Source: Candidatus Parcubacteria bacterium
GTDB lineage: Bacteria > Patescibacteriota > Minisyncoccia > UBA6257 > HR35
Assembly: GCA_026004535.1 (NCBI GenBank)
Contig: BPJI01000001.1
Location: 324,523 to 388,522, forward strand
Reading direction: 5' to 3'
Length of the DNA: 64,000 nt
Part shown: positions 13,300 through 62,955 of the stretch, piece by piece
How the letters are laid out: each line of letters starts with the position of its first letter
Numbering within the stretch: the stretch's first letter is position 1
Notes under the pieces: model-generated
What the model saw: only the letters and a program-made list of their open reading frames with translations
Databases searched by the model: none
Told to the model about the DNA's origin: nothing
Made by a program: the position numbers and the translations under genes

Positions 13300-13660
13300 C
13301 GCTGAGAGCATTATTTTACCCGGATAAATACCGGATTATTTTACCCGGATAACCAACCGGATAATGTTTACCCGGATGAATACCGGATATTAAAATATCT
13401 ACCCGGATAGTCAACCTGATAGATCACCCGGATTATTACTGTATAAATCTGGTTTAAATCCGGGTAGTTATATCAGGTTAATATCCGGGGGATTATATCT
13501 GATTTAAATCCAGGTAACTTATCCGGTCATAATCCGGGTATTTGTATCCGCTTTGGATCAGGGTAGCTTATCCGGTTTAAATCCGGGTGCTATTATCCGG
13601 TTAATATCCGGGTAATTATATTTTCTCCTGCTGTCCGCGGTGAATAATTCTTCCGTGTTA
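13300..13660. repeat. CCGGAT-type periodic palindromic element (about 21-bp phasing), about 360 bp
   Basis: Left half is …tacccggataaataccggattattttacccggataacc…. Right half carries the reverse complements (…atccgggta…atccggt…). Right terminus is CTGCTGTCCGCGGT. Confidence 0.7.
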
Positions 13661-13671
13661 TAATTTTAATT

Positions 13672-14307
13672 ATGTTTTATTTACAAAAGGTTTCCCAATT
13701 TTTGCAATATGACATTTATTTTTTTATTTCTCTTTTCTTTTTAGTTATCACCACAATTTTAAAATTTAAGACGTACGACGTCTTAAAATTGATTAGGATA
13801 TTGATGGTAGTAACGATTTTAGTCTTTATTTTATGGTCAGGCTTTTTAAGTTATAAACAATATTTGGTTTGGAAAGATCACCCTTTATCTAAATATCTTT
13901 TGCCCCCTTATCAAGAAATAAATTATTATCTAAATTATGCCTATTTTCATTTTTGGCGAGATTTTTTTTATCGTTTAATTGGTGTTTTGATTATTTTTTT
14001 ACTGATGAAATTTATAAGTTTTGTTTTTAAAAGAGATGTTTTTTATGAAGAAGAAAAAATTTTTGTTCCTTATCTTTCTTTATTTTTCTTTTTTCCTTAC
14101 AATCTAATGTTTTTCTTTTTAGGCCTTTTTATGTTAAACTTAATAATAGTAATTTCAGCTTTCAGGGGTCAGGGATCAGGTGTCAAGTTTCAGGTGTCAG
14201 AGACGAGGTTTTCTTTTAAAGATTATTGGATTTGGCTGGCTTGGTTGATATTAATTCTAGCACCACTAATTTTTAATAATTATAAGTTTTTACAATATAA
14301 ACCTTAA
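13672..14307 (+). CDS. hypothetical polytopic membrane protein (in the pilus gene cluster)
   Basis: 211 aa with several hydrophobic helices. Carries an in-frame palindromic repeat at 13767-13785. The C-terminus reads through a GGGTCAGG-type periodic repeat. Confidence 0.45.
   Translation: MFYLQKVSQFLQYDIYFFISLFFLVITTILKFKTYDVLKLIRILMVVTILVFILWSGFLSYKQYLVWKDHPLSKYLLPPYQEINYYLNYAYFHFWRDFFYRLIGVLIIFLLMKFISFVFKRDVFYEEEKIFVPYLSLFFFFPYNLMFFFLGLFMLNLIIVISAFRGQGSGVKFQVSETRFSFKDYWIWLAWLILILAPLIFNNYKFLQYKP
13767..13785. repeat. palindromic hairpin repeat TAAGACGTACGACGTCTTA inside a CDS
   Basis: Exact copy, translated in-frame (…FKTYDVLKL…). Confidence 0.7.
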
Positions 14308-16004
14308 TGATTTTACCAGAAGAGGAAATAAAAAATATTTTAATAAAAAGAGGGTTGATTGATGAAACTGTTTGGGAAGAAGCAAAAAAAGATGCCGAGA
14401 AATTAAATTTAACGACTATTGAAATTCTAATTAATCGTAAGATCATTGACCTAGAATTTTTTTACAACGTTTTAGCCGAAGAACTAAAAGTCCAACGAGC
14501 TCCACTTAAAGGAGTAAATATTCAGCCATCTGTTTTAGCTTTGGTTCCTGAGAAGATTGCCTTTGAAAAAAAACTAATCCCTTTCGCTTTAGAGAATAAT
14601 ATTTTAAAAGTTGCTATGGTGAATCCTCTTGATATCGAGACAATTAATATTTTAGAGGAAATCGCTAGTCATCAAATAGAGCCTTATCTAGCCACACCTC
14701 AAGAAATCCAATATGCTCTAGTTAATTATCAAAAACTCTATAAGGAAGAATATGAAAGATTGCTTAAGTCAGAAATTCCTCAGGTTACTACTTTAGCAAC
14801 TGAAACCAATGTTGTTCGTTTAGTTGATAATATTTTGGGTTACGCAATTAGTACTAATGCTTCAGATATTCATATTGAAGCCTTGGAAGAAGAAACTCTA
14901 ATTCGTTTTCGAATTGATGGTATTTTAAGAGAGATGATGAAATTGCCTAAAAGTTTGTTAGATCCGATTATTGCTAGAATTAAGGTTTTAAGTAATTTGC
15001 CTTTAGATGAACATTTTCGACCTTTAGATGGAAGATTTAAAGCTAAGGTTGGTGATTTTGAATTTGATATGAGGGTAGCAATTATGCCAACAATTTATGG
15101 CGAGAAGGCTGTTTTAAGGGTTTTGGCTGGGGCAATCAAGCCAACATCTTTAGAAGAATTGGGGGTAAATGAAGAAATTGAAAAAATAATTATGGCAGCA
15201 ATCAGAAAAACTTTCGGGATGATTTTGGTTACTGGTCCGACCGGAAGTGGTAAAACAACAACTTTATATACTATTATCAATATCTTAAATAATCCAGGAG
15301 TTAATATAGTTACGATTGAAGATCCAGTTGAATACGCCATTCCAAGAGTTAATCAAACCCAGGTTAATTTAAAAGTTGATTTGAATTTTGCCACTGCTTT
15401 AAGAGCATTTTTAAGGCAGGACCCAGATATTATAATGGTTGGCGAAATTAGAGATAATGAAACTGCTGAAGTTGCGGCTAATGCTGCTCTAACTGGTCAT
15501 TTGGTTCTTTCGACTTTGCACACCAATGATGCACCAACTGCTGTCCCGAGATTGGTTGAATTAGGGGTACTTCCTTATTTAGTTGCTGATAGTGTTATTT
15601 TGACAATGGCTCAAAGATTAGTCAGAAAAATTTGTCTTAATTGCATAGTTTCTGAAGAAATAACTCCAGCTCAAAAGCAAATAATTTTAGAGCAATTAAG
15701 ATACTTAAAAATTCCTGAAGAAGAAATTAGAGCTTACGAAGAAAGATTGCCCCAGTTTATTTATCGAGGCAAGGGTTGTTCAATTTGTGGCAATACTGGT
15801 TATGTAGGTCGAACTGGTATATTTGAAGCAATGATGATGAACGATGAATTAAAATATATGATTGCCAGCAGAGAATTAAATTCAGAAAAAATAAAACAAA
15901 TTGCCAGAAAGTCTGGTTATCGAACAATGTTTGAAGATGCTTTAGATAAAATTTCTGTCGGTATAACAACAATTGAGGAAGCATTAAGAGTTATTAGGGA
16001 ATAA
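14307..16004 (+). CDS. pilB: type IV pilus assembly ATPase (GspE/PilB family)
   Basis: N-terminal GSPII_E_N-like region, Walker A VTGPTGSGKTTTLYTII, motifs …MVGEIRDNETA… and the C-terminal CxxC…CxxC. Confidence 0.9.
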   Translation: MILPEEEIKNILIKRGLIDETVWEEAKKDAEKLNLTTIEILINRKIIDLEFFYNVLAEELKVQRAPLKGVNIQPSVLALVPEKIAFEKKLIPFALENNILKVAMVNPLDIETINILEEIASHQIEPYLATPQEIQYALVNYQKLYKEEYERLLKSEIPQVTTLATETNVVRLVDNILGYAISTNASDIHIEALEEETLIRFRIDGILREMMKLPKSLLDPIIARIKVLSNLPLDEHFRPLDGRFKAKVGDFEFDMRVAIMPTIYGEKAVLRVLAGAIKPTSLEELGVNEEIEKIIMAAIRKTFGMILVTGPTGSGKTTTLYTIINILNNPGVNIVTIEDPVEYAIPRVNQTQVNLKVDLNFATALRAFLRQDPDIIMVGEIRDNETAEVAANAALTGHLVLSTLHTNDAPTAVPRLVELGVLPYLVADSVILTMAQRLVRKICLNCIVSEEITPAQKQIILEQLRYLKIPEEEIRAYEERLPQFIYRGKGCSICGNTGYVGRTGIFEAMMMNDELKYMIASRELNSEKIKQIARKSGYRTMFEDALDKISVGITTIEEALRVIRE

Positions 16005-16013
16005 GAGATTAAA

Positions 16014-18700: not shown

Positions 18701-19996
18701 ATGATGAAATCAGAGGAGATAAGAAAATTATTTTTAGATTATTTTAAAGCAAGAGGACATAAAATTTTGCCTTCATCGTCATTAATTCCAATTGATGATC
18801 ATTCAGTTTTATTAACTACTGCTGGAATGCAACAGTTTAAAAAATATTATACTCGCGAAAAAGATCCGATTAAAGATTTTGGTACTCAAAGAACAGCAAC
18901 AATTCAAAAATGTTTTCGTACCACCGACATTGAGGAAATTGGTGACGAAACTCATTTAACTTTTTTCGAAATGCTAGGTAATTTTTCTTTTGGTCCTGTT
19001 GGCAAAGATGATCCTCAAAATTTTGGCAGTGATGGTTATTTTAAACGAGCAGCAATCTATTGGGCTTATGAATTTATTAAAAATTTAGATTTGGAAATTG
19101 ATTATGTAACTGTTTTTGGTGGAGAGAGAGATGTACCTTTTGATGAAGAAAGCTATAAGATTTGGAAAGAAGTTGGTTTCTCTGAAGAAAAAATTTTAAA
19201 AAAGGGCAGGGAAGATAATTTTTGGGGGCCAACAGGAGACGAAGGTCCTTGCGGTCCGACAACTGAAATTTATGTGAATAATGTCGAAATTTGGAACTTA
19301 GTTTTTAATGAATATTATCAAGATAAAAATGGAAATTTAAAAAAATTAGAATTTCCTGGAGTTGATACGGGGATGGGATTTGAAAGATTGATGAAAGTTT
19401 CGCAAAATGTACCAACAATTTTTGAAACTGATTTTTTTCAACCGTTAAAAGAAGTTTTGGATCAATTAACAAACAAAGATGATATTCGAAGAAAAAGAAT
19501 AGTTTTAGATCATATTCGGGGGAGTGTTTTTTTGATTGCTGATGGTCTTTATCCCTCAAATTTAGAGAGAGGCTATGTTTTAAGAAGAATTTTAAGAAGA
19601 TTAACTTTGAATTTAAAATTTTTAGATATCAAGATTGAAAAGATTGAAAATATGATTAAAGCAGTTATTGAAAAATATTCTCCTTTTTATCCAGAACTAA
19701 AAAATTATGATAAAATAAAAACAGTAATTTTTGAAGAAATTATAAATTTTGAAAGGACTTTAAACATTGGCTTGAGAGAATTTGAAAAAACAATTAAGGG
19801 AAATGAAAATGATGAAATTTTAGCTGAAAAATTGTTTTTGCTTTATACGTCTTATGGTTTGCCATTAGAAATTAGTAAAGAACTATTAAAAGATAATGGT
19901 CTTGGTTGGACTGAGAAATCTCAGCAAGTTTTTGATGAATTATTTAAAAAACACCAAGAAATATCAAAGGGTAGAATTAGCGAGTTAGCGAGTTAA
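18701..19996 (+). CDS. alaS: alanyl-tRNA synthetase, catalytic N-terminal domain only (431 aa; no editing or C-Ala domains in this ORF)
   Basis: …SSSLIPIDDHSVLLTTAGMQQFK…, …CFRTTDIEEIGDETHLTFFEMLGNFSFG…, …WGPTGDEGPCGPTTEIY…. Confidence 0.75.
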   Translation: MMKSEEIRKLFLDYFKARGHKILPSSSLIPIDDHSVLLTTAGMQQFKKYYTREKDPIKDFGTQRTATIQKCFRTTDIEEIGDETHLTFFEMLGNFSFGPVGKDDPQNFGSDGYFKRAAIYWAYEFIKNLDLEIDYVTVFGGERDVPFDEESYKIWKEVGFSEEKILKKGREDNFWGPTGDEGPCGPTTEIYVNNVEIWNLVFNEYYQDKNGNLKKLEFPGVDTGMGFERLMKVSQNVPTIFETDFFQPLKEVLDQLTNKDDIRRKRIVLDHIRGSVFLIADGLYPSNLERGYVLRRILRRLTLNLKFLDIKIEKIENMIKAVIEKYSPFYPELKNYDKIKTVIFEEIINFERTLNIGLREFEKTIKGNENDEILAEKLFLLYTSYGLPLEISKELLKDNGLGWTEKSQQVFDELFKKHQEISKGRISELAS

Positions 19997-20006: not shown

Positions 20007-21512
20007 ATGAATAAATTTTATTTATATCTTAACAAAGAGGATGAATTGGGAGAAATAATTGAAAAGATTAAAAGAGTGAAAGATAAAGAGATTATTTTAG
20101 TTGTTCCGGAAAAAACAAAAGCCTTATCTCATTCTACTAATTTTGAACTTTTTAAAAAAGAGATTCAAAGTTTAGATAAAAAAATTTATTTTAATACTGA
20201 TGACGAAAAGATAAAAAATTTAGCTAGACAAAATAAATTTCCAATCTTTTTAGAAGAAACAGAAGAAAGAATTTTTGATATTAAGCCACCTAAAAAAAAG
20301 AAAGAGTCCGAAGGAGAAATAACTTTTCAACCAACGAAGCCTAAATTAATATTTAATCTCAAAAAATTTTTCATCTATTTTTTAACATTATTTAGCTTAT
20401 CGATTTTAGGTTTTGTTGGTTTTCGACTTTTTCAAACACAAGCAGAAATAACGATTGAAACTCAAAAAACTCTTTATGATTTAAATGAAGTCATAACCTT
20501 AAAACAAGACCAGACTTTGCCGGATTATGAAAATAAGATTTTGCCTGCTAAATATTTTGAAGTAGATCTAATTAAAACAGAAACAATCAAAACAACTGGT
20601 CGAGTTTTTACTGATGAAAAACCTTATTTAAAAGTTATTTTTCTAAATTATTTAGAAAGAGAAATCCCATTAGTTGCTGGAACTAGGCTTAGTTTTGAGG
20701 GTAATCTCTTTAAAACAACAGAAAGAATAACTATTCCTTCGGCTAAAGATAATCAGCCTGGACAAAAATCTGTTTTAGCTTTACCAGTTAACTTAAAAGA
20801 TGAGACTTTGAAAATTAATAAGGGCGCTGATTTGAAAATTGTTGCCTGGGAAGAAAGTAGAGTAAAAACAGAGGATGGTAGTTTATTTATTGATGTTATT
20901 AAAGCTAAAGTCGAAGAAGATTATGATTATGGTGCTGTTACTAAAATTGGTTCAGTTGCGCCTCAGGATATAACTAATGTTAAATTAGCCCTAGAGGATT
21001 CATTGAAAAAAGCAGTTGCTAGTGATTTAGCCTTAAAAAATCCAGAGACATTTTATCTTTTCGAGCCAGATTTAGTTAACATAGAAATTACTAACATTTC
21101 ACATAATGTTGGAGATAAAACTGATCAGATTTCGGCAACTGGTAAAGCGACTTATGAGACAATGAAGACAAACAAAAAAGACTTTGATGATTTTGTTAAA
21201 AATTTGATTAATCAAGAAATTTTACGTCAAGAAAAAAAATTAATCATCAGTCAGTTAAGGATTGATAAAATTGAACTTTTAGATTTTGATGCTAAGAGAA
21301 AAATAATGACAATAGGTGTTAAGGGGCAAGCGATTTTGGTTCCTGATCTTGTTCCTGAGACTCTTAAAACAGCACTTCAAGGAAAAACAATTGAGGAAAC
21401 GAGGGATTATTTTAAGATTCCTGGTGTTGATAAAGTGACAATTAAAATTTTTCCTAATTGGAAAGAAAAATTACCCTCAGATCCTCAAAAAATTAAGATT
21501 GTCATAAAATAG
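20007..21512 (+). CDS. hypothetical protein (501 aa, one internal TM segment)
   Basis: Long uninterrupted ORF with ordinary codon usage. No motif recognised. Confidence 0.5.
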   Translation: MNKFYLYLNKEDELGEIIEKIKRVKDKEIILVVPEKTKALSHSTNFELFKKEIQSLDKKIYFNTDDEKIKNLARQNKFPIFLEETEERIFDIKPPKKKKESEGEITFQPTKPKLIFNLKKFFIYFLTLFSLSILGFVGFRLFQTQAEITIETQKTLYDLNEVITLKQDQTLPDYENKILPAKYFEVDLIKTETIKTTGRVFTDEKPYLKVIFLNYLEREIPLVAGTRLSFEGNLFKTTERITIPSAKDNQPGQKSVLALPVNLKDETLKINKGADLKIVAWEESRVKTEDGSLFIDVIKAKVEEDYDYGAVTKIGSVAPQDITNVKLALEDSLKKAVASDLALKNPETFYLFEPDLVNIEITNISHNVGDKTDQISATGKATYETMKTNKKDFDDFVKNLINQEILRQEKKLIISQLRIDKIELLDFDAKRKIMTIGVKGQAILVPDLVPETLKTALQGKTIEETRDYFKIPGVDKVTIKIFPNWKEKLPSDPQKIKIVIK

Positions 21513-21593
21513 AAATTGTGCTATAATTATAACAGCTTCATAGCTAACCAGCTTCGTAGCTTCTTTAGAATTTTTGGTCGGAGTTAGAAAAGA

Positions 21594-21929: not shown

Positions 21930-23893
21930 CAGATTATCGAGCTGAGCATATTCAAGTTTTAGAAGGCATTGAAGCGGTCAGAAAAAGACCAGGAATGTAC
22001 ATTGGTGGTACAGGTCTTGATGGATTGCATCATTTAATTTGGGAAATTGTTGCTAATAGTGTTGATGAAGCTTTGGCCGGTTATGCTAAAAATATCGAGG
22101 TAGTAATTGAAAGCGAAAATCGAATTAGGATCAGCGATGATGGTCGAGGTATTCCTGTTGAGATTCACCCTAAAACAAAAAAATCTGCCCTAGAGACAGT
22201 CTTAACCATACTTCACGCTGGCGGAAAATTTGATCAGAAAATTTATAAATCAGCTGGCGGTCTTCATGGTGTTGGCGTTAGTGTTGTTAATGCTTTATCA
22301 AAATATTTAAAAGCAATTGTTAAAAGAGATGGCTATGTTTGGACGCAAGAATATAAACAGGGAAGAGCAATAACTGAACTCAAAAAAGGAAAACCAAGCA
22401 AAGAAACAGGAACAACAATAATTTTTGAACCTGACCCACAGATCTTTCCTGAAATTAAATGGGAAACAAAAAGAATTTTAGATTATCTTCGTCATCAAGC
22501 CTATTTAACCCCGGGTTTGAGAATTAATTTTATTGATGAAAGAAATAACTTTCGTTATAGTTTTTATTTTGAAAAGGGCTTACAATCATTTTTTGAACAT
22601 TTAATTTTAAATAAAAATCCAGTAATTCAAGATTATATTTACTTTAATGAAAAAGGAGAAAATTTTCAATTAGAAGTGGCTTTTACCTATTTAGAAAATA
22701 ATGAGATCAATGAATACTTTTTTACTAATAATATCTTAAACGCTGAGGGAGGGACTCACCAATTGGGTTTTCGTTCGGCGTTGGTGAAAATATTTAATAA
22801 AGTTGGTAGCGAGTTGGGATTGATTAAAGAAACAAGTGGTCTAACAATTAATAGTGAAGATATTCGTGGTGGTTTGATTGTGATTTTATCTTTGAAAATT
22901 CCTGAGCCTCAATTTGAAGGTCAAACAAAAGCTAAACTTGGCAATCCTGAAGCAAAAAACATAGTCGAAGATGTAGTGAGTAGAAATTTAGAAGAATATT
23001 TACATAAGAATCCTGATAAAGCAAAAACAATTTTAAATCGTGTACTTTTAAACACTCAGGCGAGAAAAGCTGCTAAAGCTGCTCGTGAGACAATTTTTAA
23101 AAAAAGAATTCAAGCTGGTCTTACCTTATCTGGTAAATTAGCAGATTGTTCTTCTCGTGATCCAGAAAAAAGAGAGTTATTTGTGGTTGAGGGTGATTCT
23201 GCTGGTGGTTCAGCTAAACAAGGCAGAAATAGAATTTTTCAAGCGGTTTTGCCCTTACGAGGAAAAATTTTGAATGTTGAAAAAGCTAATTTGGAAAAAA
23301 TTTTAAAATCTCAAGAAATAAAAAATTTAATTATTGCTTTGGGCACAGGTTTTGGTAAAGATTTTAATTTAGAAGGTTTAAGATATTCAAAAATAATTAT
23401 AGCCACTGATGCTGATTCTGATGGTAATCATATACGAACATTGCTTTTAACTTTATTTTATAGATATATGAGGCCATTAATTGAGCAAGGTTTTATTTAT
23501 ATTGCCCAACCACCATTATATAAAATTCAAGTTGGCAAAGAAATTTACTATGCTTATTCTGATGCTGAAAAAGACAAAATAATCGCAGACTTGACGCAGA
23601 CCAAACGCAGAACTTCGCAGACCAAACGCAAACAATTACAAACCTTAGAAACTCAGGCTGAAAATAAATCTATTAATATTGATGTTCAAAGATATAAAGG
23701 TTTAGGTGAAATGAATCCTGAAGAACTTTGGGAGACAACCTTAAATCCTGAAAAAAGGGTCTTAAAGAAAGTGACAATTGAAGATGCTGAGGAGGCGGAT
23801 AGATTATTTACAATTTTGATGGGTCAGGAAGTCGAACCACGAAAATTATTTATTGAAACTTATGCTCAGGAAGTTAAGAATCTTGATATATGA
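21926..23893 (+). CDS. gyrB: DNA gyrase subunit B
   Basis: GHKL ATPase (…EVVIESENRIRISDDGRGIPV…), TOPRIM …VEGDSAGGSAKQGR…, …LPLRGKILNVEKA…, C-terminal …KNLDI. Contains an in-frame repeat insertion at about 23584-23640. Confidence 0.9.
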   Translation: MTDYRAEHIQVLEGIEAVRKRPGMYIGGTGLDGLHHLIWEIVANSVDEALAGYAKNIEVVIESENRIRISDDGRGIPVEIHPKTKKSALETVLTILHAGGKFDQKIYKSAGGLHGVGVSVVNALSKYLKAIVKRDGYVWTQEYKQGRAITELKKGKPSKETGTTIIFEPDPQIFPEIKWETKRILDYLRHQAYLTPGLRINFIDERNNFRYSFYFEKGLQSFFEHLILNKNPVIQDYIYFNEKGENFQLEVAFTYLENNEINEYFFTNNILNAEGGTHQLGFRSALVKIFNKVGSELGLIKETSGLTINSEDIRGGLIVILSLKIPEPQFEGQTKAKLGNPEAKNIVEDVVSRNLEEYLHKNPDKAKTILNRVLLNTQARKAAKAARETIFKKRIQAGLTLSGKLADCSSRDPEKRELFVVEGDSAGGSAKQGRNRIFQAVLPLRGKILNVEKANLEKILKSQEIKNLIIALGTGFGKDFNLEGLRYSKIIIATDADSDGNHIRTLLLTLFYRYMRPLIEQGFIYIAQPPLYKIQVGKEIYYAYSDAEKDKIIADLTQTKRRTSQTKRKQLQTLETQAENKSINIDVQRYKGLGEMNPEELWETTLNPEKRVLKKVTIEDAEEADRLFTILMGQEVEPRKLFIETYAQEVKNLDI

Positions 23894-25959: not shown

Positions 25960-26199
25960 TATTATATCTAATTATAACTTAAAAGTTTTTTAGTTAAATA
26001 TTTTCAAGTTAAAGAGCTCACAAGAACATAAAGTAAGACATACGATGTCTTACTATTAATAGATTAGTAAATTATAAATTATATTTTATAATAATAATAA
26101 TTTTATAATAATAATAAATTAAATAATAATGAATCAGGAAAAGTCGAGGTTAATAAATTTAATAAATATTTCGAACATAAGATGTCCGAATATTAAAAG

Positions 26200-28440: not shown

Positions 28441-28447
28441 GTACATA

Positions 28448-28969: not shown

Positions 28970-28994
28970 CTTTCAGGTAGTCAGCTTTCAGCTT

Positions 28995-47984: not shown

Positions 47985-48375
47985 GATTAACGCAGACAGC
48001 AACAGAAAAAATATTTTCTGCCCGGATATTAACCGGATAAGTTACCCGGATTCTTACCGGATATACTACCCGGATTCTTACCGGATAATATTTCATTATT
48101 TTACCCGGATATTAACCGGATGATAGCTACCCGGATTTAGACCGGATATACTACCCAGCTATAAACCGGATGATTTATAAAATATTTTTTATCCGGTATT
48201 CATATCCGGGTAAAATAATCCGGGTGGCTATCCGGGTAATCTATTCCGGTAAGTTATCCGGGTAAAACAATCCGGTATTTATCCGGGTAATCCATCCGGT
48301 TGACTATCCGGTTAATATTTTAATATCCGGTAATCATCCGGGTAAATAAATATCCGGTTGATTATCCGGGTTAAA
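47985..48375. repeat. CCGGAT-type periodic palindromic element, about 390 bp
   Basis: Left …cccggatattaaccggataagttacccggattcttaccggatatac…. Right half carries the reverse complements …atccgggtaaaataatccgggtggctatccgggtaatc…. Confidence 0.7.
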
Positions 48376-53600: not shown

Positions 53601-54355
53601 TTCTCATCTTTGTTAATATCCATAACTTCAATTGCAGCATAATCTTCTCTATTTTTGGCTTTTCTTTTTTTGTCAATAATTTGGATTGCTCTTTGGATTT
53701 CTTCATCTTTGAATTTAATTAATTTCAAAACTTTATCAATATTTTTTGGTTGTCTGATTAAAGAATCGGCGTCATCAACAAAAACCAAATCAAAATTTTT
53801 AGGAATAATGTCAAAATTTTTATGAAGAAAGTTGGCCGTAGTAAGCAAAATATCAAAATCTTCATTTTTTAATAATTCTTTATCTTCTTTTTCTTTAATG
53901 ATTAAAATTTTTTTATCAGATTTTATATTTTTTAATTTTTTCTCAATCTCACGCAATAAAATTTTTGAAGGGACTAAATAATAAACTTTGCCTGGAAGAA
54001 AATGAGAAATAATGTTACCAAAAGTTGTTTTACCAATTCCGGTAGGAGCAATTATGGAAAAAGATTCTCTTTTTAAGACTCTTTTTGCCCAATAAAGCTG
54101 AAGTCGAAGTGGTTGATGCCCAGTATTTTCTTTAAAAAAATTTATGAATTCTTTTAATTTCTGTAAAACTATGTAATCTTCATTAAAATTCTCCAAGTCC
54201 TCTTTAAGATCGAGATTCTCAGTTATCTTAAATAGGGTTTTTTTAAATCTTTCATAATCTTTATTACACAAGCCATAATTATAGATTTCCTCAAAATTAG
54301 CATCATTTCTATCTATCGGACAAATTTCTAAATAGCGAACGTTTAATTTTTCCAT
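50657..54355 (-). CDS. rgy: reverse gyrase (N-terminal helicase-like domain fused to a type IA topoisomerase)
   Basis: …LQLYWAKRVLKRESFSIIAPTGIGKTTFG…, …DLVFVDDAD…, …ALVLVESPTKAKTIANFF… (TOPRIM), Zn finger CQNCKRH…CPVC. 1232 aa. In-frame repeat insertions at about 52690-52830 and 53390-53460. Confidence 0.8.
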   Translation of the reverse strand: MEKLNVRYLEICPIDRNDANFEEIYNYGLCNKDYERFKKTLFKITENLDLKEDLENFNEDYIVLQKLKEFINFFKENTGHQPLRLQLYWAKRVLKRESFSIIAPTGIGKTTFGNIISHFLPGKVYYLVPSKILLREIEKKLKNIKSDKKILIIKEKEDKELLKNEDFDILLTTANFLHKNFDIIPKNFDLVFVDDADSLIRQPKNIDKVLKLIKFKDEEIQRAIQIIDKKRKAKNREDYAAIEVMDINKDEKGLIIAASATLTPKTKKIALFRELLGFEIGSATTYLRNIEEVYEIINGTNGNNSSAHSDSSAFVSAPSDSSQKIALIKRSIYWLKKLGPGGFVFLNDDFRKEDLNNYIDFLKENSINAVSYEKFNTKNQKAFLENEIQVVVGFSNIRNPLTRGIDLPQKVRYALFLGVPKFKIPLKVSYSPLHLFLLGLTLRETVDEKSLIERNLNFLKKISFLKEEAILADKNLKEKIEPIKRTFEEFLKDEEIIEKIKKHPRITLMTQTDANYTRTNANNNGVKTNINSKENNHLSGNHPGNISSDDPGNNLNYYLVVSDPRGYIQASGRTSRLFPLGLTKGLALILAENEKVLNHLKDKLKILGYEANFKNASEINLTKILEEIDKDRKIVERVLTGEEFTLKDPIETALVLVESPTKAKTIANFFGKPARRIKANIIFYEVSLGNLHLNICATLGHFTDLTHQDGYYGVKKEKGEFVPVFQPLKICQNCKRHLSLNENECPVCNSQNFLSKQELIKNLQKIAFEVDKIYLATDPDTEGEKIAFDLFAYLYPYNQNIKRIELHEITKTEFIKKIKEPRDVDVNLVKAQLLRRISDRWIGFKLSEEIQQHFKNLNLSAGRVQTPVLGWILEKEKRIKNKHYLVNVSINQPNDSQKLTPLYFYLENEDIIKEIKTAFKNQELEIEIKFNRTQEETINPLPPYDTSNLLKDANSFFRFEAPITMRLAQDLFEQGLITYHRTDSVFVSEFGRNVAYEYLERKNLKDLFYKRAWGEIGTHEGIRPTKPLDVQDLIESMILEQKNLTKKHLQLYGLIFNRFIASQMKPSKGKKTEIEIILKTSNHEFVLYKQTQEAFVEITEGNHLQFFKNIKIFNLIEDKFKVENLKIKKVPKEYHYTQGELIDEMKKRGLGRPSTYSTIIQTLIDRKYVLNRSGYLIPVSLGEKIYNYLIKKHKDLVAEEFTIKLEEAMDLVAEGKKDYQKILNDTFKRVFQ

Positions 54356-55232: not shown

Positions 55233-56579
55233 TTAATTGATTCTTTTCAAAATAATTCCTCCGCCTAAAACGATGTCATCTTTATAAAAAACTATTGATT
55301 GACCTGGGGCAACAAATTTTTGAGGTTCGAGAAATTCAATGAACGCAGACCCTCGCAGACTGTGCGCAGACTTTTGCAGACTATACTCAGATTCACGCAG
55401 AATAAGTTTTGCTTTAACTAAGGGTTGTCTATGGCGAAAACGAACATCAATAATTATAGAATTACCCGGATGATTACCTGATAGATTACCCGGATGATTA
55501 CCTGATAGATTACCCGGATGATTACCGGATGAATAGTTATTGTTTATATAGTCTGCGTAAGTCTGCGTGTAGTCTGCGTGGGTCTTCGTTTTATCTGTAT
55601 TAGTCTGAGGAAACAAAATTTCTTTTTCTAAGATATTAATTTCAGTAATTTCAATTTTTTGGCTATAAAGTAAAGGATGACCTTCTTTAGCAACAACAAT
55701 TAAATTTTCTTCAGGAATTTTTTGAGCTACATAATATGGGCCATCACCAACTTTAATATTAAGTCCATGTCTTTGGCCTTCAGTGAAATAAAAATAACCA
55801 GGATGAGTGCCTAGGATCCTTCCTTCAGTATCAATAATTTTACCTTCTTTTGGTTTTAAATATTGACTTAAAAATTCTCTTAATTTTACTTGGCCAACAA
55901 AGCAAATTCCCATACTTTCCTTCTTCTCAGCAACTGGTAAATTATATTTTTTAGCAATTTCTCTAACTTCAGTCTTTAGCAAATCGCCAACAGGGAAAAT
56001 TATTTTTGAGAACTTTTCTTTTTCAATTGACCAAAGAAAATAAGTTTGATCTTTATCCTGATCTTTTGCTTTTAAAAGATGAATTTCAGATGTATTACCC
56101 TGATGTCCACCGGATATATTACCCAGATAATTACCTGATGAATTATTTCTTTTATTAGATTCTATATTAAGATTGTCTTTCTTATTGTTCGCATCAGTTC
56201 GCGTTAAGTTCGCATCGATTTGCGTTCGAGCATAATGTCCTGAAGCAACCATCTCATAACCTAAATTTAAAGCTTTATCAAAAAATACGCCAAATTTTAT
56301 AAACTGATTGCAGTAGACATCTGGATTAGGAGTTAAGCCCTTTTCATAAGTTCGAATCATATAGTTTATAACTTTTTCTTCAAATTCATCGGTTAAATCA
56401 AAAACATAAAAAGGAATATTTAAAATTTCAGCTACTCGACGAGCATCTTCAGCATCTTGAGGATTACAAAAATCAAAACAATGTAAATGAACACCAACGA
56501 GATTATAACCTTTTTCTTTTAAAAGCAAAGCTGAAACTGAAGAATCAACTCCTCCAGAAAGAAGAACAGCTATTTTCAT
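55233..56579 (-). CDS. mnmA: tRNA-specific 2-thiouridylase MnmA
   Basis: MKIAVLLSGGVDSSVSALLL… PP-loop. Two long in-frame insertions of CCGGAT plus GTCTGCGT repeat DNA (55340-55580, 56090-56230). Confidence 0.85.
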   Translation of the reverse strand: MKIAVLLSGGVDSSVSALLLKEKGYNLVGVHLHCFDFCNPQDAEDARRVAEILNIPFYVFDLTDEFEEKVINYMIRTYEKGLTPNPDVYCNQFIKFGVFFDKALNLGYEMVASGHYARTQIDANLTRTDANNKKDNLNIESNKRNNSSGNYLGNISGGHQGNTSEIHLLKAKDQDKDQTYFLWSIEKEKFSKIIFPVGDLLKTEVREIAKKYNLPVAEKKESMGICFVGQVKLREFLSQYLKPKEGKIIDTEGRILGTHPGYFYFTEGQRHGLNIKVGDGPYYVAQKIPEENLIVVAKEGHPLLYSQKIEITEINILEKEILFPQTNTDKTKTHADYTQTYADYINNNYSSGNHPGNLSGNHPGNLSGNHPGNSIIIDVRFRHRQPLVKAKLILRESEYSLQKSAHSLRGSAFIEFLEPQKFVAPGQSIVFYKDDIVLGGGIILKRIN

Positions 56580-57016: not shown

Positions 57017-57194
57017 GAAGTGACTTGTCCTGCACCACAGCCTTTGTCACGGTGCCTACCTGCTGGCAGGCAGACAGGTCGCCCTGGACCGAACTATGTT
57101 TTGGTTCAGGGCTAACCCCTAATCCCTAACCCCATAGTAGATTAAATCTCAATACGGGTTATATCTTCCAATTTTTATATATAAAATTTAATAT

Positions 57195-57345: not shown

Positions 57346-57465
57346 CTCATTCAGCTTTACAGCTTCCTAGCTTCACAGCTTATCAGCTTCAAAAAATTAT
57401 AATATAATTATTATATCATAGAAGCTTTAAAGCTATGAAGCTTGGAAGCTGATAAGCTATTTTTT

Positions 57466-57536: not shown

Positions 57537-57788
57537 ATTGAGTAATTAACATTTTTACCATTTTAGTTTGTTCCACATCTTCCCTGTCCGTTTCCTTCTG
57601 TTTAGTATATGTCGGAAGGAGCAGAAGCGGACGCAGAACCATCGGAAGGAGCAGAAGAATTATTTCCGCTTGTTCCGTATCCTTTTCTGTTTATTCCGCA
57701 TTTTCCATGTCCGTTTCCGTTCATTTCGTTTTTTCCGTGTCCGCTTCTGTTCATTTCGCCTTTAAATTTTAGCACAATTTTCCACATC

Positions 57789-57817
57789 TTGACATCATAT
57801 TTTTTTCTATTTATAAT
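57789..57817 (+). promoter_or_regulatory. sigma70-like promoter (TTGACA-17-TATAAT), duplicate of 37048
   Basis: Identical upstream 60 bp to the 37082 gene. Confidence 0.5.
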
Positions 57818-57823
57818 TAAATT

Positions 57824-58144
57824 ATGAATAAAAAAATGAATAAATCCTTCACTTTAGTTGAACTCTTAGTTGTCTTAGCTCTAATAGCTATCTTAGCTAC
57901 TGTCTTAATTGTTGTCATTAAGCCAGCAGATATCTTTAAAAGAGGTAGAGATAGTCAAAGAACTTCAGACCTTAAAAATCTTGAAAAAATATTTGACCTT
58001 ATTCTTTTTGAAACTCAAGGCACCTTTTCTGAACTTCAATATGCTTCTTCAAATGTTGTCTATATCTCTCTTCCTGATACTTCATCAACTTGTGGTCAAT
58101 GGATAAGTCAATTACCACAGCTTCCTTCAGGCTGGTCATATTGA
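57824..58144 (+). CDS. type IV pilin-like module (identical to 37082..37402) ending at the same in-frame TGA
   Basis: 100% identical N-terminal module; TGA at 58142-58144. Confidence 0.7.
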   Translation: MNKKMNKSFTLVELLVVLALIAILATVLIVVIKPADIFKRGRDSQRTSDLKNLEKIFDLILFETQGTFSELQYASSNVVYISLPDTSSTCGQWISQLPQLPSGWSY

Positions 58145-58972
58145 TGCTCAGCAACTCCAACAAATATTGATGGTACTGGCTGGATTCCTATTCCTTTTAA
58201 TCAATTTTCAAGCATTAATCTTTCTAGACTTTTCATTGATCCAATCAATAGACCTCCATATTACTATGCATTTGTTGCTGGAGGAAGTTATGAGTTAACA
58301 GCAGCTTTAGAAGTTAAGACGAATAAAGGAGATGGGTCAATTTCTGCTAATGATGGGGGAGATGATGATTATATTTATGAAAAAGGAACTAATTTAAATT
58401 TAACTCCTTTAGTTGTTCAAGGTAGACTTCTCACAAATTCTATTTACGCTGTTAGTGGTAGTTGTGATAACTCTACTTATTGTGGTTATATGGATAATCA
58501 TAGTGAAGCTGATGCTATTAGAAATTTTCCAGCCAACATCTGTAAAAAATATGTTGATAAATTATATTGGGGTTCAGTGTGTGATAATACAAACCCTGAA
58601 AGTGGAGTTAGGAATTATTTTTATTCACGTTTTAGATTTTTGTTTGTTCCTGATGTAAGTGGAACATGGTATTTTGCTGTTGATAGTAATGATGGAGCGG
58701 AATTAATATTAAATAAAGATGATTCTGATAACGACCACACAAAACACACTTTAATTGCTTCATGGTATGGTGTGCATGGTTGGTGTAATTGTCAAAATGC
58801 AAGTGGCACGATTGATATGATTGCAGGTCAAGGATATTGGTTTGATTATATTCAAGAAGAATGGAGCGGAGTTGAAGCGGCCGTTTTATGGGTAAAAAGG
58901 CCAGGAGATGTTTGGAAAGTTTTAAGTGTTACTAATTTTCCTAATCAAATATTTGCAAGGCCTGCATATTAG
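58145..58972 (+). other. in-frame stop-free continuation after the TGA: PA14/GLEYA-like carbohydrate-binding domain
   Basis: Same frame, 276 codons with no stop. …VSGTWYFAVDSNDGAELILNKDD… resembles PA14. Confidence 0.45.
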
Positions 58973-59426
58973 TATAAAAATACAAAATAGCTCATCAGCT
59001 TTATAGCTTCCAAGCTTTTTTAGCTTACCATTTTTTTAGTTTTATAGAAAACATAAAGGTACATATAAAATGCTATAGCATCTAAAACATCCCTACACAT
59101 AAAAAGACAAAAGTCTACTGCTACGTAGCAATAGAGAATTGAACCAGTTTTTATTTCTACTATTTAAATACGATCGTATTAAGTTAGGAGAATTAATAAA
59201 TATAATGACGTGCGATATCCAGATGTTGATTCATCATCGAATATTTGGGACATCGCAGGTCTTAAATTATTTTCCGTATCATCTTCCTTTATTCCGTTTT
59301 TTTCGTATTTATTTCAGTTTGTTCCATATCTTCCATTTTCATTTCTCTCTGTTTGGCTGAGAAATTGACATTTTTTCCAGATTCTAGATTTTTGTTTTTT
59401 AGAAAGCTTTCAGGATAATTAAATTA

Positions 59427-60782
59427 ATGGAACCAGAAATTTTAACCAGTTTATCGATTGAAGAAGTTGAAGAGGCTCTTTTGGGTGCGCTTTTAATTGA
59501 TGATGAAGCTGTAATCCGAATTATTGATATTTTAAAACCAGATGATTTTATTAGGAGAGAGAATCAAATTATTTATCAAGCAATTTTAGATTTATTTGAA
59601 AGAAGAATGGGTATTGATTTGGTAACTGTTGGAAGTAGATTGAAAGAAAAAAAACTTTTAGACGAAATTGGTGGCCAGGATTATTTAGTCTATCTAATTC
59701 ATAAAGCACCAACAATTGGTAATGTTTATGCTTATGCTCGAATAATTAAAACCAATAAAGCTAAGAGAGATTTAACTGAACTTTCAAGAAAAATTCAAGA
59801 GTTAATTCAAGAGGGAGGTAAAGATGCTGCTGAACTGATTGATGAAGTCGAAAAAAGAATCTTTTCAATTGCTGAAAGAGTTTATCCTTATGAATTTACT
59901 CCAGTCAGTTCTTTAATTGAACAAAGCTTGAAAAGAATCGAAGATTTACAAAAAGGGATTGTGATTCGTGGCATACCAACTGGTTTTCCTAAATTAGATC
60001 TTTATTTAGGAGGATTCCAAAAATCTGATTTAATTATTTTAGCTTCGAGGCCATCTCAGGGTAAAACTGCCTTAGCTTTAAATATTGCTCGCTATTTAGG
60101 TGTTCAAGAAAAAATTCCAGTTGGTATTTTTTCTTTAGAGATGTCAAAAGACCAAATTATTGATAGATTAATTGCTTTGGAAGCTGGCGTTAGTTTGTGG
60201 CGTTTAAGAACTGGAAGATTGATTAATGAAGGAGATGTTGATGAGCTAGCTCTGGTTTATGAAGCGAGTGAAAGATTAAAAATTGCACCGATTTTCGTTG
60301 ATGATAGTCCTGCTTTAACTGATTTGCAAATAAGAACAATGTCCAGAAAATTAAAGCATGAGATTGGTGAATTGGGTCTTTTGATAATCGATTATTTACA
60401 ATTAATAAGGGCCAACAAACAAATAGAAAATAGGGTTCAAGAAGTTTCAGAAATTTCTAAAAATCTAAAGGAATTAGCTAGAGAATTAGAGGTTCCTGTT
60501 TTGGCTATCTCTCAACTTTCTCGCGAACCAGAAAAAAGAGTTTCTGCAATTCCAAGATTAAGTGATTTGAGAGAAAGTGGAAGTATTGAACAAGATGCTG
60601 ATGTTGTTTTATTCATTCATCGGCCCAAAGAAGGAGCAGCAGCTTTGCCCTCAAATCAAGTAAACATTATAATTGCTAAGCATCGAAATGGACCAATTGG
60701 AAGTATCGATTTATATTTTGATCCTGATACTGTTTCTTTCTATTCAATTGAAGAAGTTGAGCAAGAATTGGAATATCACTGA
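59427..60782 (+). CDS. dnaB: replicative DNA helicase DnaB
   Basis: …SDLIILASRPSQGKTALALNIA… (Walker A), …LLIIDYLQLI…, RecA-like C-terminal domain. Confidence 0.9.
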   Translation: MEPEILTSLSIEEVEEALLGALLIDDEAVIRIIDILKPDDFIRRENQIIYQAILDLFERRMGIDLVTVGSRLKEKKLLDEIGGQDYLVYLIHKAPTIGNVYAYARIIKTNKAKRDLTELSRKIQELIQEGGKDAAELIDEVEKRIFSIAERVYPYEFTPVSSLIEQSLKRIEDLQKGIVIRGIPTGFPKLDLYLGGFQKSDLIILASRPSQGKTALALNIARYLGVQEKIPVGIFSLEMSKDQIIDRLIALEAGVSLWRLRTGRLINEGDVDELALVYEASERLKIAPIFVDDSPALTDLQIRTMSRKLKHEIGELGLLIIDYLQLIRANKQIENRVQEVSEISKNLKELARELEVPVLAISQLSREPEKRVSAIPRLSDLRESGSIEQDADVVLFIHRPKEGAAALPSNQVNIIIAKHRNGPIGSIDLYFDPDTVSFYSIEEVEQELEYH

Positions 60783-60885
60783 TTTAATTCATCAGTTCCG
60801 AGTTAACGAGTTATGAGTTTAAATTAATATTAATAAAAATAGGAATTCGTAATACGGACCGAGGAATTTATGAATTCATATTATT

Positions 60886-61482
60886 ATGTTAATTCCGTTA
60901 TTTAAAAAAATTATTGAATTTTTTGATTCTTTTCCTGAAATTGGGCCGAGACAGGCAATGAGACTATTTTTTTGGTTGGTTAAGCAAGATAAAGAAACGA
61001 AAAATAAATTTTTGGAAAATTTAAAAGTTTTATTTGAAAATGTAAATTTCTGCCAAAATTGTTTTTTTCCAACAACAGAAAAACTTTGCTTAATTTGTTC
61101 TAATCCTAAAAGGAAAGATGAAATAATTGCTTTAGTCGCTCGAGAAACCGATGTTTTAAGTTTAGAGACAGCTAAAGTTTTTAAAGGTAAATATTTTATT
61201 TTAGGTGGTTTAATTTTGCCTTTTGAGGATAAGGGTTTGATTAAAGAAAGATTAAAAATTCTTGAAAAAAGATTAGAAGATGGAAAAATTGAAGAAGTTA
61301 TTGTTGCCTTACCTTATACGCGCGAGGCTGAACCAACTTTAAAACATTTAGAAATTTTAAGAAAAAAATTCCCCCAAGTTAAATTTAGTTTTTTAGCTAA
61401 AGGAATTCCTCTTGGCGGTGAGATTGAATTTATTGACCCAGAGACATTAAAAGAAGCAATTGAAAAACGAATATCGCCCTGA
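60886..61482 (+). CDS. recR: recombination protein RecR
   Basis: C4 zinc finger FCQNCFFPTTEKLCLIC plus Toprim domain. Confidence 0.85.
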   Translation: MLIPLFKKIIEFFDSFPEIGPRQAMRLFFWLVKQDKETKNKFLENLKVLFENVNFCQNCFFPTTEKLCLICSNPKRKDEIIALVARETDVLSLETAKVFKGKYFILGGLILPFEDKGLIKERLKILEKRLEDGKIEEVIVALPYTREAEPTLKHLEILRKKFPQVKFSFLAKGIPLGGEIEFIDPETLKEAIEKRISP

Positions 61483-61484
61483 TT

Positions 61485-61720
61485 TACATCGGATGAATTT
61501 ACCCGGATTTAAACCGGATATAATTACCCGGATGTAAACCGGATATAACTACCCGGATGTAAATCGGATAATAGCTACCCGGATTTAGACCGGATGATTC
61601 ATAAAATATTTTTAATCCGGTAGTTTATCTGGGTAAAATAAATCCGATATTAATCCGGGTAATATTTTAATCCGGTATTTATCCGGGTAATCTATCCGGT
61701 TGGTTATCCGGGTAGTTAAG
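61485..61720. repeat. CCGGAT-type periodic palindromic element
   Basis: …tttacccggatttaaaccggatataattacccggatgtaaaccggatataactacccggatg…, then reverse-complement half …atccggtagtttatctgggtaaaataaatccg…. Confidence 0.7.
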
Positions 61721-61721: not shown

Positions 61722-62186
61722 TTAAGAATAAATTTTTTTGATTACATAAACAGTATTGCCTTTAGGAGTTTTAACTAAAACTTCTTGACCAATTTTTTTA
61801 TTTAGGAATGCTTGACCTAAAGGTGATTCAGTTGAAATTTTTCCTTCTAATGGATTACTTTCGCCAAAACCAACTAATGTAAAAGTATATTTTTTGTTTG
61901 ATCCCTTTTCAATAACTTCAAATTTACTTCCAGGCAAGATACGATCGCTTCTTTTCGTGTTTCTTATTATTTTTGCTGTTCTTAGGACATTTTCTATTTC
62001 CATAATTTTTCTTTCTAATCTTTCTTTTTCATTCATAGCAATATCGTATTCAGCATTCTCACTAATATCTCCTAATTCAAAAGCACTTTTTAGTCTCTTA
62101 GCAACTTTTTCCCTCTCAACAGTTTTAAGATATTCTAGTTCCTTTTTTAATTTTTCGTATTGTTCTTTTGAAATATAAGTTATCAT
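61722..62186 (-). CDS. greA: transcription elongation factor GreA
   Basis: …ELGDISENAEYD… coiled-coil, plus the FKBP-like C-terminal domain. Confidence 0.85.
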   Translation of the reverse strand: MITYISKEQYEKLKKELEYLKTVEREKVAKRLKSAFELGDISENAEYDIAMNEKERLERKIMEIENVLRTAKIIRNTKRSDRILPGSKFEVIEKGSNKKYTFTLVGFGESNPLEGKISTESPLGQAFLNKKIGQEVLVKTPKGNTVYVIKKIYS

Positions 62187-62266
62187 TAGAAAAATATTAT
62201 ACTCAAAATTTTTTGTCTGTCAAGTTTTTGAAAATTTTTGAAAATTTTATAAAATGAATGTTATAA

Positions 62267-62707
62267 ATGGACAGAGAAAGACAAATATTTAAAAAAGGAG
62301 AAGAATTTATGATTGTTTTGGGAATCGTTTTAAATAAAAAAGGTGAGGTTTTGATTGTTAAAAGAAAGAAAAAAGAGATTACTGCGAACGGCAAAGAATT
62401 TATTTGGGCTTTTCCTGGAGGTCGACAAGAAAAAGGAGAAACTAGAGAAGATAGAGTAGTTTCAGAGGTTTTGGCTGAAACAGGTTATAAAGTAAAACCA
62501 TTAAGACAAATTCATCTTAGAGTTCATCCTGATACTTTAACTCTGATTGCTTATTTTCTTTGTGAATTAGAAAAGGAAGAGCCTGTTCAAGAGATAGAGG
62601 AAAAAGATGAAGTTGAAGAAGTTCGTTGGGTTAAACCAGAAGAATTAAAAAATTATTTCACAACTGATATTGACCCAGAAGTTAAAAAAATTTTAAATAT
62701 TGATTAA
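62267..62707 (+). CDS. NUDIX hydrolase
   Basis: Nudix box FPGGRQEKGETREDRVVSEVLAETGY. The true start may be the Met at about 62312. Confidence 0.7.
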   Translation: MDRERQIFKKGEEFMIVLGIVLNKKGEVLIVKRKKKEITANGKEFIWAFPGGRQEKGETREDRVVSEVLAETGYKVKPLRQIHLRVHPDTLTLIAYFLCELEKEEPVQEIEEKDEVEEVRWVKPEELKNYFTTDIDPEVKKILNID

Positions 62708-62744
62708 TAATTAAGTATCGCTAACAACTTTAGAAAATTTTCAA

Positions 62745-62955
62745 CCGCTGACAGCTGCGGAAATGTTTTAACCACTAGGATGGTCTATTGGATATAGTTA
62801 CCCGGATAACCAACCGGATATCTATTTACCCGGATAACTTACCGGATTATATTTACCCTGATGATTACCGGATAAATCCGGTTTATATCCGGGCAGTGGT
62901 TATCCGGTTTAAATCCGGGTAGAAAATATTTTTCAGCTGCTGTCCGCGGTAAATA
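62745..62955. repeat. CCGGAT-type periodic palindromic element with inverted flanks (CCGCTGACAGCTGCGGAAA … TTTTCAGCTGCTGTCCGCGGT)
   Basis: Seen directly. Shares the right terminus with 13300-13660. Confidence 0.7.

Follow-up and report, generated by a model that had tools for sequence, protein, structure and literature searches.

What are the five long, self-complementary arrays that lie between genes in a 64-kb stretch of contig BPJI01000001.1, part of a 556-kb Candidatus Parcubacteria metagenome-assembled genome (MAG) of ~30% GC, and how did they come to be there? The stretch, hereafter called the window, makes up ~11% of the genome, which derives from Katase hot spring sediment at 52 °C (PacBio HiFi metagenome, run DRR290133). 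Here we show that the arrays, designated E1 to E5 from left to right, belong to a dispersed family of composite palindromes built around the hexamer CCGGAT, and that in related genomes members of this family mostly lie in frame, free of stop codons, inside protein-coding genes. They probably constitute a selfish, non-autonomous, modular palindromic repeat family of thermophilic, genome-reduced Parcubacteria, analogous to the Rickettsia palindromic elements (RPEs). The paper describing the source genome leaves the repeats unmentioned (PMC9671151), and the searchable literature on intergenic palindromes in the candidate phyla radiation (CPR) and on coding palindromes in thermophiles contained no description of these elements.

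An initial annotation, made from the letters of the window alone, had proposed five such elements, and all five were recovered where it placed them. CCGGAT occurs 81 times in the window, counting both strands, against an expectation of 10.4 +/- 3.2; 72 of these occurrences fall within arrays, and the remaining nine are at chance level. In each element forward units are followed by reverse-complement units, as had been described, and the polarity is invariably +++---, with the CCGGAT arm first and the ATCCGG arm second in the window and at every related locus. The strict 21-bp helical phasing attributed to the units was wrong. The units pair up as a dimer of 24-26 bp, TACCCGGAT-nnnn-ACCGGAT-nnnnn, in which the spacing of the cores alternates between 11 and 13-15 bp, with observed values of 11, 12, 13, 14, 15 and 16 bp. 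Many copies have a small, perfect palindrome, CCGGATATATCCGG, at their centre. The proposal that each element could extrude as a cruciform or fold into a long hairpin was borne out, since all five elements folded as RNA far better than dinucleotide shuffles (z = -9.6 for E1, -5.4 for E2, -12.5 for E3, -9.8 for E4 and -7.9 for E5). Folded as DNA, E3 gave z = -11.5, and a palindrome scan of the whole window returned E1, E3 and E4 as its three strongest palindromes.

The elements differ in size, completeness and setting. E1 (13298-13641) lies between a weak pilin-like open reading frame (ORF) and a membrane ORF, both on the plus strand; its forward CCGGAT arm (13316-13436) and return ATCCGG arm (13447-13616) are bounded by a left terminal unit at 13298-13310 and a right terminal unit, CTGCTGTCCGCGGT, at 13628-13641. 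E2 (28300-28445), upstream of a cupredoxin-like ORF, is decayed, with many cores mutated to CCAGAT or CCTGAT, and is without a terminal unit. E3 (47989-48375), the largest palindrome of the window, separates a flippase gene on the minus strand from the divergent PAP2 gene on the plus strand and consists of a left terminal unit, AACGCAGACAGCAACAG (47989-48005), a forward arm (48020-48171) and a return arm (48191-48375). E4 (61489-61716; forward arm 61489-61595, return arm 61615-61716), also without terminal units, lies between the convergent genes recR (+) and greA (-). E5 (62744-62950), between a NUDIX gene and ychF, both on the plus strand, has its CCGGAT hairpin at 62802-62918 between a left terminal unit, ACCGCTGACAGCTGCGG (62744-62760), and a right one at 62937-62950. 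The four gene contexts first claimed (after the pilin-like ORF, before PAP2, after recR and before ychF) are thus accurate, and every reading frame of the intergenic window copies, E1 among them, contains stop codons. The label "intergenic" fits these five and not the family, as decayed in-frame copies occur in the window's own reverse gyrase and mnmA genes and the copies of relatives are mostly genic.

Two of the elements had been said to share a conserved terminus. The sequence in question, CTGCTGTCCGCGGT, is indeed common to the right ends of E1 and E5, and each of E1, E3 and E5 has an inverted, diverged copy of it on its left; the element ends pair in predicted folds, and the termini thereby lengthen the stem. 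What looked like a terminus is a single unit from another repeat family, ACGCGGAC/GTCTGCGT: whole arrays of this family occupy the same place in a related contig (L020) and at many other loci, where they form outer arms around the CCGGAT core. At the E5-orthologous site of L020, (ACGCAGAC)x4, i.e. (ACGCAGACnn)x4, lies on one side of the CCGGAT hairpin and (GTCCGCGT)x3, i.e. (GTCCGCGTnn)x3, on the other, and this arrangement of arms and core recurs at those other loci. The first half of a full element therefore reads outer (ACGCGGAC)n, linker AnnAATAATTT, inner (TACCCGGAT-nnnn-ACCGGAT-nnnnn)n and a tight centre, and the second half reads (ATCCGG...ATCCGGGTA)n, linker AAAAATATAnAAA and outer (GTCTGCGT)n.

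Full elements are asymmetric and of defined composition. They have two junctions, ACGCGGAC-AnnAATAATTT-ACCCGGAT and, on the complementary strand, ACGCAGAC-TTTnTATATTTTT-ACCCGGAT; both junctions, with their distinct linkers, were found at >=10 independent loci in several genomes. Independent assembly in place cannot arrive at the same two junctions at so many loci, and the copies therefore share a common template. The outer arms pair ACGCGGAC with GUCUGCGU, which gives G.U on one strand only, and this G/A asymmetry makes more sense as a constant property of a master sequence. In relatives, a sister family has a CCGAAT inner core inside the same outer arms; it was not found in the window.

The family is dispersed and real, and is confined to a narrow lineage. 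Arrays restricted to the window and devoid of conserved ends would, according to the initial annotation, have spoken for local slippage products and against an element family; we found dozens of copies elsewhere, with conserved junctions. A search pattern of 22 bases, corresponding to one and a half dimers, matched the window 8 times against 0 expected. In a scan of one genome for each of 185,579 species, its sole relevant match was a 1.2-kb contig of low GC (32%) bearing a complete element (L010), which has been binned as "Bacteroidota"; nine other matches were single, in GC-rich genomes and at chance level. The same pattern had zero matches in viral contigs and retrieved 47 metagenome stretches, ~43 of them of low GC (25-33%), from a handful of samples. 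These stretches hold 59 clusters, often several to a contig, all with the polarity +++---. At the protein level, an exhaustive HMMER search with a profile of the element-encoded peptide gave 48 matches among 1.84 billion representative proteins, about half of them unrelated SGNVTGN phage-fibre repeats, and a word-indexed search with the consensus peptide returned only 3 short ORFs.

The suggestion that fragments of the units occur inside genes was confirmed and proved to be the most important lead, its extent having been underestimated. Of 52 non-redundant copies in the related contigs, 29, more than half, are embedded in ORFs without a stop codon or a shift of frame. Throughout, a single frame is read: the forward arm encodes PGxKPDxx (or YPDxxRIx), the return arm SGxHPGNx, and the outer arrays TRTNAD... 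and ...SLRESA. All 129 return-arm cores use two codon phases and never the stop-prone one, 99 of 105 forward-arm cores do likewise, and composites are co-oriented with the host ORF 8:1. The hosts are unrelated, conserved enzymes and include TGT, which carries 63 inserted residues where the Thermotoga maritima structure has 2 (overall E = 3e-98), an alpha/beta-hydrolase, thymidylate kinase (Tmk) and SfsA, the last three identified by profile search, as well as pyrG and a truB-like gene identified by eye. Judged from the reading frames, the genic inserts are probably translated, in which case peptides such as SGNHPGNLSGNHPGN would be joined to MnmA or TGT flanks.

The window itself holds a decayed composite in frame within the reverse gyrase gene (52691-52828, minus strand; TQTDANYTRTNANNN...LSGNHPGNISSDDPGNN), and the corresponding residues, aa ~510-555, are absent from the orthologue in L065, a related contig that is nearly free of repeats. 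Over 13 orthologues, 398 residues are present in the window and missing from L065. The reverse gyrase gene (50657-54355, minus strand) is full length, with helicase, Toprim and Topoisom_bac domains; that of L065 is split into ORFs of 401 and 767 aa.

The gene mnmA serves as a natural experiment in such insertions. Its close orthologues mostly encode 344 aa, with others at 356, 366, 370, 392-416, 437 and, in the window, 448 aa, and the inserts are evident relative to PDB structures. Alignment of the orthologues resolved three loop hot spots holding varied combinations of modules. Site 1 (56088-56228, minus strand) is a decayed composite in the window, RTQIDANLTRTDAN...SSGNYLGNISGGHQGN, with intact composites at the orthologous site in relatives; across strains, the site is filled by a full CCGGAT composite, by the same outer arms with a CCGAAT-type module, or by outer-type arrays only. 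Site 2 (55455-55601, minus strand), unique to the window, has outer-type units and the SGNHPGN-encoding arm only (TDKTKTHADYTQTYADYINNNYSSGNHPGNLSGNHPGNLSGNHPGNS), and site 3 (55341-55400, minus strand) has only outer units of the SLRxSA type (LRESEYSLQKSAHSLRGSAF). At site 3, relatives present a graded series from one outer unit per side, through an outer-only element, to a full composite. A reading of the mnmA arrangement as a single element containing host sequence was discarded, as the orthologue alignment resolved two independent insertions at adjacent hot spots. In an AlphaFold model of the window MnmA, built from the orthologue alignment, 260 residues have pLDDT >=90, and pLDDT falls below 50 at 123-163 (site 1), 328-341 and 348-371 (site 2) and 401-408 (site 3). 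The inserts are thus predicted to form disordered loops on a confident core, with the fold undisturbed.

Copies of the family are polymorphic for presence between relatives. Contigs syntenic with the window at ~80-85% nucleotide identity have, at the E3 site (~390 bp in the window), a gap of 14 nt in L048 and L065. At the E4 site the gap is 0 nt in L065, and L020 has a short TTCGTTAA array of another family. At the E5 site of L064 and L065, the NUDIX and ychF genes share 4 nt. Among more closely related contigs, 89-96% identical to one another, the large indels are repeat arrays or repeat-flanked segments. Filled/empty comparison of these contigs yielded five whole palindromic elements that are present in one contig and absent from the other, with length differences of 165, 180, 132, 114 and 108 bp, every one a multiple of 3; between L017 and L035 the difference is two 24-bp dimers exactly (48 bp). 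Array length changes in whole units, inner modules vary within constant outer arms, cores are eroded by point mutation, and species differ in the repeat families that they carry. An apparent empty site in the window's pyrG gene is not clean and may hold a remnant (APPDSDY), and was not used as an insertion boundary.

A family of selfish palindromes without a mobilising enzyme of its own would tie these observations together as follows. Copies would reach many unrelated sites and leave no duplication behind; at any one site, we take mobility rather than differential loss as the probable source of the polymorphism. Changes in unit number would reflect replication slippage, a role that we infer from whole-unit steps, and differences in modules would reflect nested insertion into the palindrome centre or central deletion. 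Intergenic copies would drift freely and accumulate stops in all frames. Copies landing in genes would survive selection only in frame, stop-free, in the hydrophilic phase (TRTNAD...NNL-PGxKPD...SGxHPGN...KSLRESA) and in protein loops, and would thus appear in the protein as disordered loops at its surface. Such long palindromes could persist because selection is reduced in a genome of the symbiont type, and possibly because reverse gyrase keeps the DNA relaxed or positively supercoiled.

Several results weigh against this explanation. Target-site duplications were absent from the junctions of the five filled/empty pairs and from the comparison of E3 with L048, which argues against a classical DDE transposase and leaves hairpin-recognising HUH/Y1-type enzymes, or recombination and template switching, as candidates for mobilisation. 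The empty alleles are not clean junctions and hold 13-29 nt of unrelated sequence, so that insertion and deletion are indistinguishable at any single site. The E5 site is occupied both in the window and in L020, at ~80% identity, and some copies must therefore be long-lived. Core positions are 94% conserved and spacers 52-63%, which could indicate function, a comparison biased by the use of the cores to find the copies. Finally, within the ~11% of the genome covered by the window, a Pfam scan of ORFs of >=90 aa gave no transposase, integrase or nuclease candidate, and the annotated flanks of five related contigs contained no mobilising enzyme. A separate observation concerns P0036, a 554-aa enolase retrieved in the search of representative proteins, with a PD-(D/E)XK_3 nuclease domain in frame between Enolase_N and Enolase_C; the domain adjoins a stretch matching the element-peptide profile, and the protein may point to a nuclease connected with insertions of this kind.

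Among known systems, the RPEs are the closest in behaviour. RPEs were reportedly described by Ogata et al. in 2000 (Science 290:347) and 2002 (Genome Res 12:808). Both groups are dispersed palindromic repeats of ~100-200 bp that comprise several families in small, host-dependent genomes, that occur between genes as well as in frame in unrelated housekeeping genes, that encode a conserved, fold-compatible peptide, and for which no mobilising enzyme is known. In-frame insertion of RPEs into unrelated genes is summarised in PMC10969869. The elements described here differ in being found in a thermophile of another phylum (Patescibacteria/Parcubacteria) and in consisting, in place of a unique sequence, of nested tandem arrays, ~60-400 bp in all, with 8-13-bp units, variable copy number and exchangeable CCGGAT and CCGAAT modules. 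On sequence and modelled structure, the family appears to belong to an RPE-like class, as a dispersed, multi-copy palindrome with in-frame readthrough in unrelated genes and placement in loops. The likeness is one of behaviour, and common descent is very unlikely because the host is a Parcubacteria MAG.

The initial annotation had also entertained a mobile element resembling a miniature inverted-repeat transposable element (MITE), and this idea is broadly supported. Dispersal, presence and absence between close relatives, and conserved asymmetric junctions all suit it, as do the properties shared with bacterial MITEs such as Correia/NEMIS, ERIC and RUP: small size, non-coding and multi-copy nature, terminal inverted repeats, hairpins, in-frame fusion with ORFs and polymorphism between strains. 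The missing duplications do not suit it, nor does an interior made of a variable tandem array, and neither the 64-kb window nor the annotated flanks yielded a transposase or cognate insertion sequence (IS). Repetitive extragenic palindromic (REP) sequences, with their bacterial interspersed mosaic elements (BIMEs) and the related REPINs, are likewise imperfect palindromes with an orientation-defining asymmetry, mosaic modules and no target-site duplication, and other elements are known to insert into their loops. REPs are 20-40 nt long and extragenic; the present elements are 60-400 bp long, more than half intragenic, and made of tandem-array modules. The transposases that mobilise REPINs, the REP-associated tyrosine transposases (RAYTs; Y1/HUH), had no counterpart here in the form of a Y1_Tnp match among the window ORFs (~11% of the genome).

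How far do other explanations account for the same facts? It is conceivable, and in our judgement doubtful, that the elements are not transposon-like at all and that a process acting on single units seeds matched forward and reverse arrays around a centre, extends them and nests modules within them. Candidates for such a process are hairpin-targeted insertion into palindrome centres and break repair by template switching. Compatible with it are the gradation from minimal to full element at mnmA site 3, the swap of CCGGAT for CCGAAT inside constant outer arms, the lack of target-site duplications and the lack of arm-specific complementarity. If this were so, thermophilic Patescibacteria would possess an as yet undescribed mechanism that keeps reshaping loops in their essential proteins.

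A selected role as functional RNA or DNA hairpins, be it as long intrinsic terminators, mRNA-stabilising 3' hairpins or attenuators, is unlikely. Such a role would agree with the very stable folding of all five elements, with the location of E1, E4 and E5 downstream of genes (E4 between convergent genes) and with the E5 site being filled in two species. It is opposed by the emptiness of orthologous sites in relatives, in some of which the genes overlap or are separated by 0-14 nt, and by the location of most copies of relatives within coding sequence. The spacers give a further measure. Their complementarity is 0.52 within elements and 0.60 between elements (range 0.59-0.63), and because spacers are no more complementary within than between elements, there is no compensatory maintenance of the stem. 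Two narrower versions were examined and set aside. Strand-specific RNA structure, assessed from G.U versus A.C mismatches and E(+) versus E(-), showed no consistent bias to the transcribed strand. Intrinsic terminators are short GC-rich hairpins with a U-tract that end a transcription unit; the elements are 150-390 nt long and have genic copies, and terminator function cannot be general because E3 sits between divergent genes. Rfam 15 gave no match to any of the elements, whether gathering thresholds or a cut-off of E <=0.05 were applied.

The helically phased protein-binding or methylation array proposed at the outset is not supported, and we regard arrays of sites for a nucleoid or partition-type protein, or of CCGG methyltransferase targets, as distinctly improbable. 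GC-rich cores of 6-7 bases recurring at about every helical turn (11-15 bp) in an AT-rich genome, around a palindromic centre, speak for such arrays. Against this, the spacing is irregular (11-16 bp), and at least six other core families share the architecture, so that one binding specificity cannot explain the class. In addition, CCGAAT replaces CCGGAT inside identical outer arms in the sister family, and copies are dispensable at orthologous sites and tolerated within coding sequence. No DNA methyltransferase or restriction gene was present among the window ORFs, and, as noted above, the CCGGAT occurrences beyond the arrays are what chance predicts.

A purely local origin, by slippage and hairpin-templated synthesis in place with no transfer between loci, would be served by the whole-unit change of 48 bp between L017 and L035, by the abundance of arrays with a period of 7-30, which account for 16% of the window's non-ORF sequence and 3.3% of its ORF sequence, and by the series from minimal to full elements at mnmA site 3. 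As the sole explanation it is largely refuted, and we consider it very improbable: the same composite, with the same linkers and outer-arm G/A asymmetry, stands at >=10 unrelated loci in several genomes, and whole composites of 110-190 bp are present or absent between contigs that are 92% identical.

Known uptake sequences form inverted pairs behind genes and, inside genes, favour certain frames, which, together with the PilB, PilC and several pilins encoded in the window, brings to mind a molecular drive in which motifs favoured by type IV pilus or competence uptake spread by uptake and recombination. Such a drive would account for genic copies in tolerated frames. There is little chance that this holds here, because uptake sequences are single 9-12-mers made by point mutation, not inserted arrays of 100-400 bp, and because many unrelated core families coexist and the sets of families differ between species.

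Guide-RNA arrays of the CRISPR kind or of the tandem interspaced guide RNA (TIGR)-Tas kind, the latter likewise built of two alternating short tandem repeats and present in CPR bacteria but unidirectional, with ~36-nt units (edge repeat, 9-nt spacer A, loop repeat, 9-nt spacer B) beside a tas gene with a Nop domain (PMC12045711), are scarcely credible here, given 24-26-nt units, variable positions of 4-5 nt, palindromic order, copies in coding sequence and no Nop-domain match in window ORFs of >=90 aa.

Palindromic repeats that encode protein have been regarded as peculiar to Rickettsia, and their behaviour has so far been described mainly there. The probable selfish palindrome family would constitute a second system of gene-invading palindromes, independent of that of Rickettsia and different in structure, in which to ask how such elements move, and its presence in a 0.56-Mb thermophilic CPR genome suggests that gene invasion by selfish palindromes recurs in reduced, host-dependent genomes. 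Essential enzymes are lengthened by tens of residues, and the range of MnmA from 344 to 448 aa among close relatives points to fast loop variation. The persistence of 400-bp palindromes alongside reverse gyrase bears on the control of palindrome stability by DNA topology. There are practical consequences as well. The elements appear to break short-read assemblies, as in L001 (Logan DRR290133_6089), a 2.4-kb contig identical to window positions 59122-61528 that stops 46 nt past recR, just within E4; they may mislead binning, as the assignment of L010 illustrates; and they inflate ORF lengths and create spurious small "hypothetical proteins" (P0001-P0003).

CCGGAT is the largest of many short-unit array families in the genome, and the process that forms arrays in general deserves more interest than any single family. 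Other tandem arrays with GC-rich cores (ATCCGTG/CACGGAT, AGGGATT, AGCTTC, TTCTGCGTAG, TTCCGT...) lie mostly right after stop codons or overlap C-termini. They were mapped at 6250-6331, 9197-9244, 21540-21575, 28968-29011, 36065-36129, 36938-36989, 38284-38337, 40938-40980, 41066-41111, 45029-45065, 48935-49010, 57346-57464 (a complete AGCTTC palindrome between tRNA genes), 57664-57763 and 58990-59030. Arrays of other families also lie in frame in ychF (63471-63534 and 63635-63704), pyrG (42947-43002), gyrB (23594-23630), the C-terminus of rsmI (36899-36984) and argS (aa 73-95 and 540-566); the peptides of this set are SELNRTNSELTETNTEL, TDLHGFNSSTDLHG, ELRRTDTELSRTDTEL, TQTKRRTSQTKRK and INADNNPHKSVLNPRKS, and wherever compared these residues are missing from L065 orthologues. 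Cyanobacterial short tandemly repeated repetitive (STRR) sequences, reportedly described by Mazel et al. in 1990, are heptamer arrays comprising many families of 7-8-bp intergenic tandem units, which the AGGGATT, AGCTTTC and TAGCTTCT arrays elsewhere in the window resemble. To our knowledge, no report shows STRRs arranged as nested palindromes or inserted in frame into housekeeping genes.

In another set of relatives (L019:8810-8880, L021:1839-1905 and the flanks in L029, L044, L051 and L054), CCGGAT elements adjoin a conserved promoter-like motif that includes a palindromic operator (TTGTCCGATCGGACAA ... TATACT), and the hairpin is followed by a T-rich tract. Transcription of some copies may yield hairpin RNAs that stand alone. 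Selfish insertion has a further layer in the same gene neighbourhood, where the dnaB gene of the relative GCA_028282985.1 (L064:6244-8883) carries an intein with a LAGLIDADG endonuclease and encodes 879 aa, against 451-465 aa in the window and L065.

Repeats also border other features of the window. Genes of the 23S_rRNA_IVP family, encoding a four-helix bundle that is weakly bAvd-like, lie at 9326-9655 (minus strand), 28995-29378 (minus strand) and, interrupted by stops, 31806-32297; flanking CTGAAAGCTGACAGCT arrays occur at 3720-3733, 9656-9672 and 29406-29461, and gene and flanks may form another repeat-bounded cassette. A perfect small hairpin, TAAGACGTACGACGTCTTA, occurs at 4487-4523, 6710-6728, 9783-9801 and 26040-26056, upstream of a duplicated promoter-like sequence, TTGACAAAATAAAATAGTTAGGATATAAT (6743-6831 and 9820-9865), that precedes large surface-protein genes at 6832-9219 and 9866-12454. 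Near-identical cassettes at 37020-37550 and 57760-58292 share a promoter-like region and a 106-aa pilin ORF (37082-37402 and 57824-58144) with identical N_methyl scores; ~150 nt of identical sequence follows, and then a Laminin_G_3 ORF in one and a PA14 ORF in the other. The duplication looks like C-terminal cassette variation of a pilin or adhesin, or like pseudogenes.

Four GC-rich non-coding islands (3447-3733, 26764-27182, 38561-38790 and 57017-57120), with no Rfam match at E <=0.05, may encode structured RNAs such as a divergent RNase P, SRP or tmRNA, or RNAs of new kinds. Lastly, an alanyl-tRNA synthetase catalytic domain occupies a 431-aa ORF (18701-19996) that is followed by a 501-aa ORF (20007-21512) without a Pfam match; the two are possibly a split alaS.

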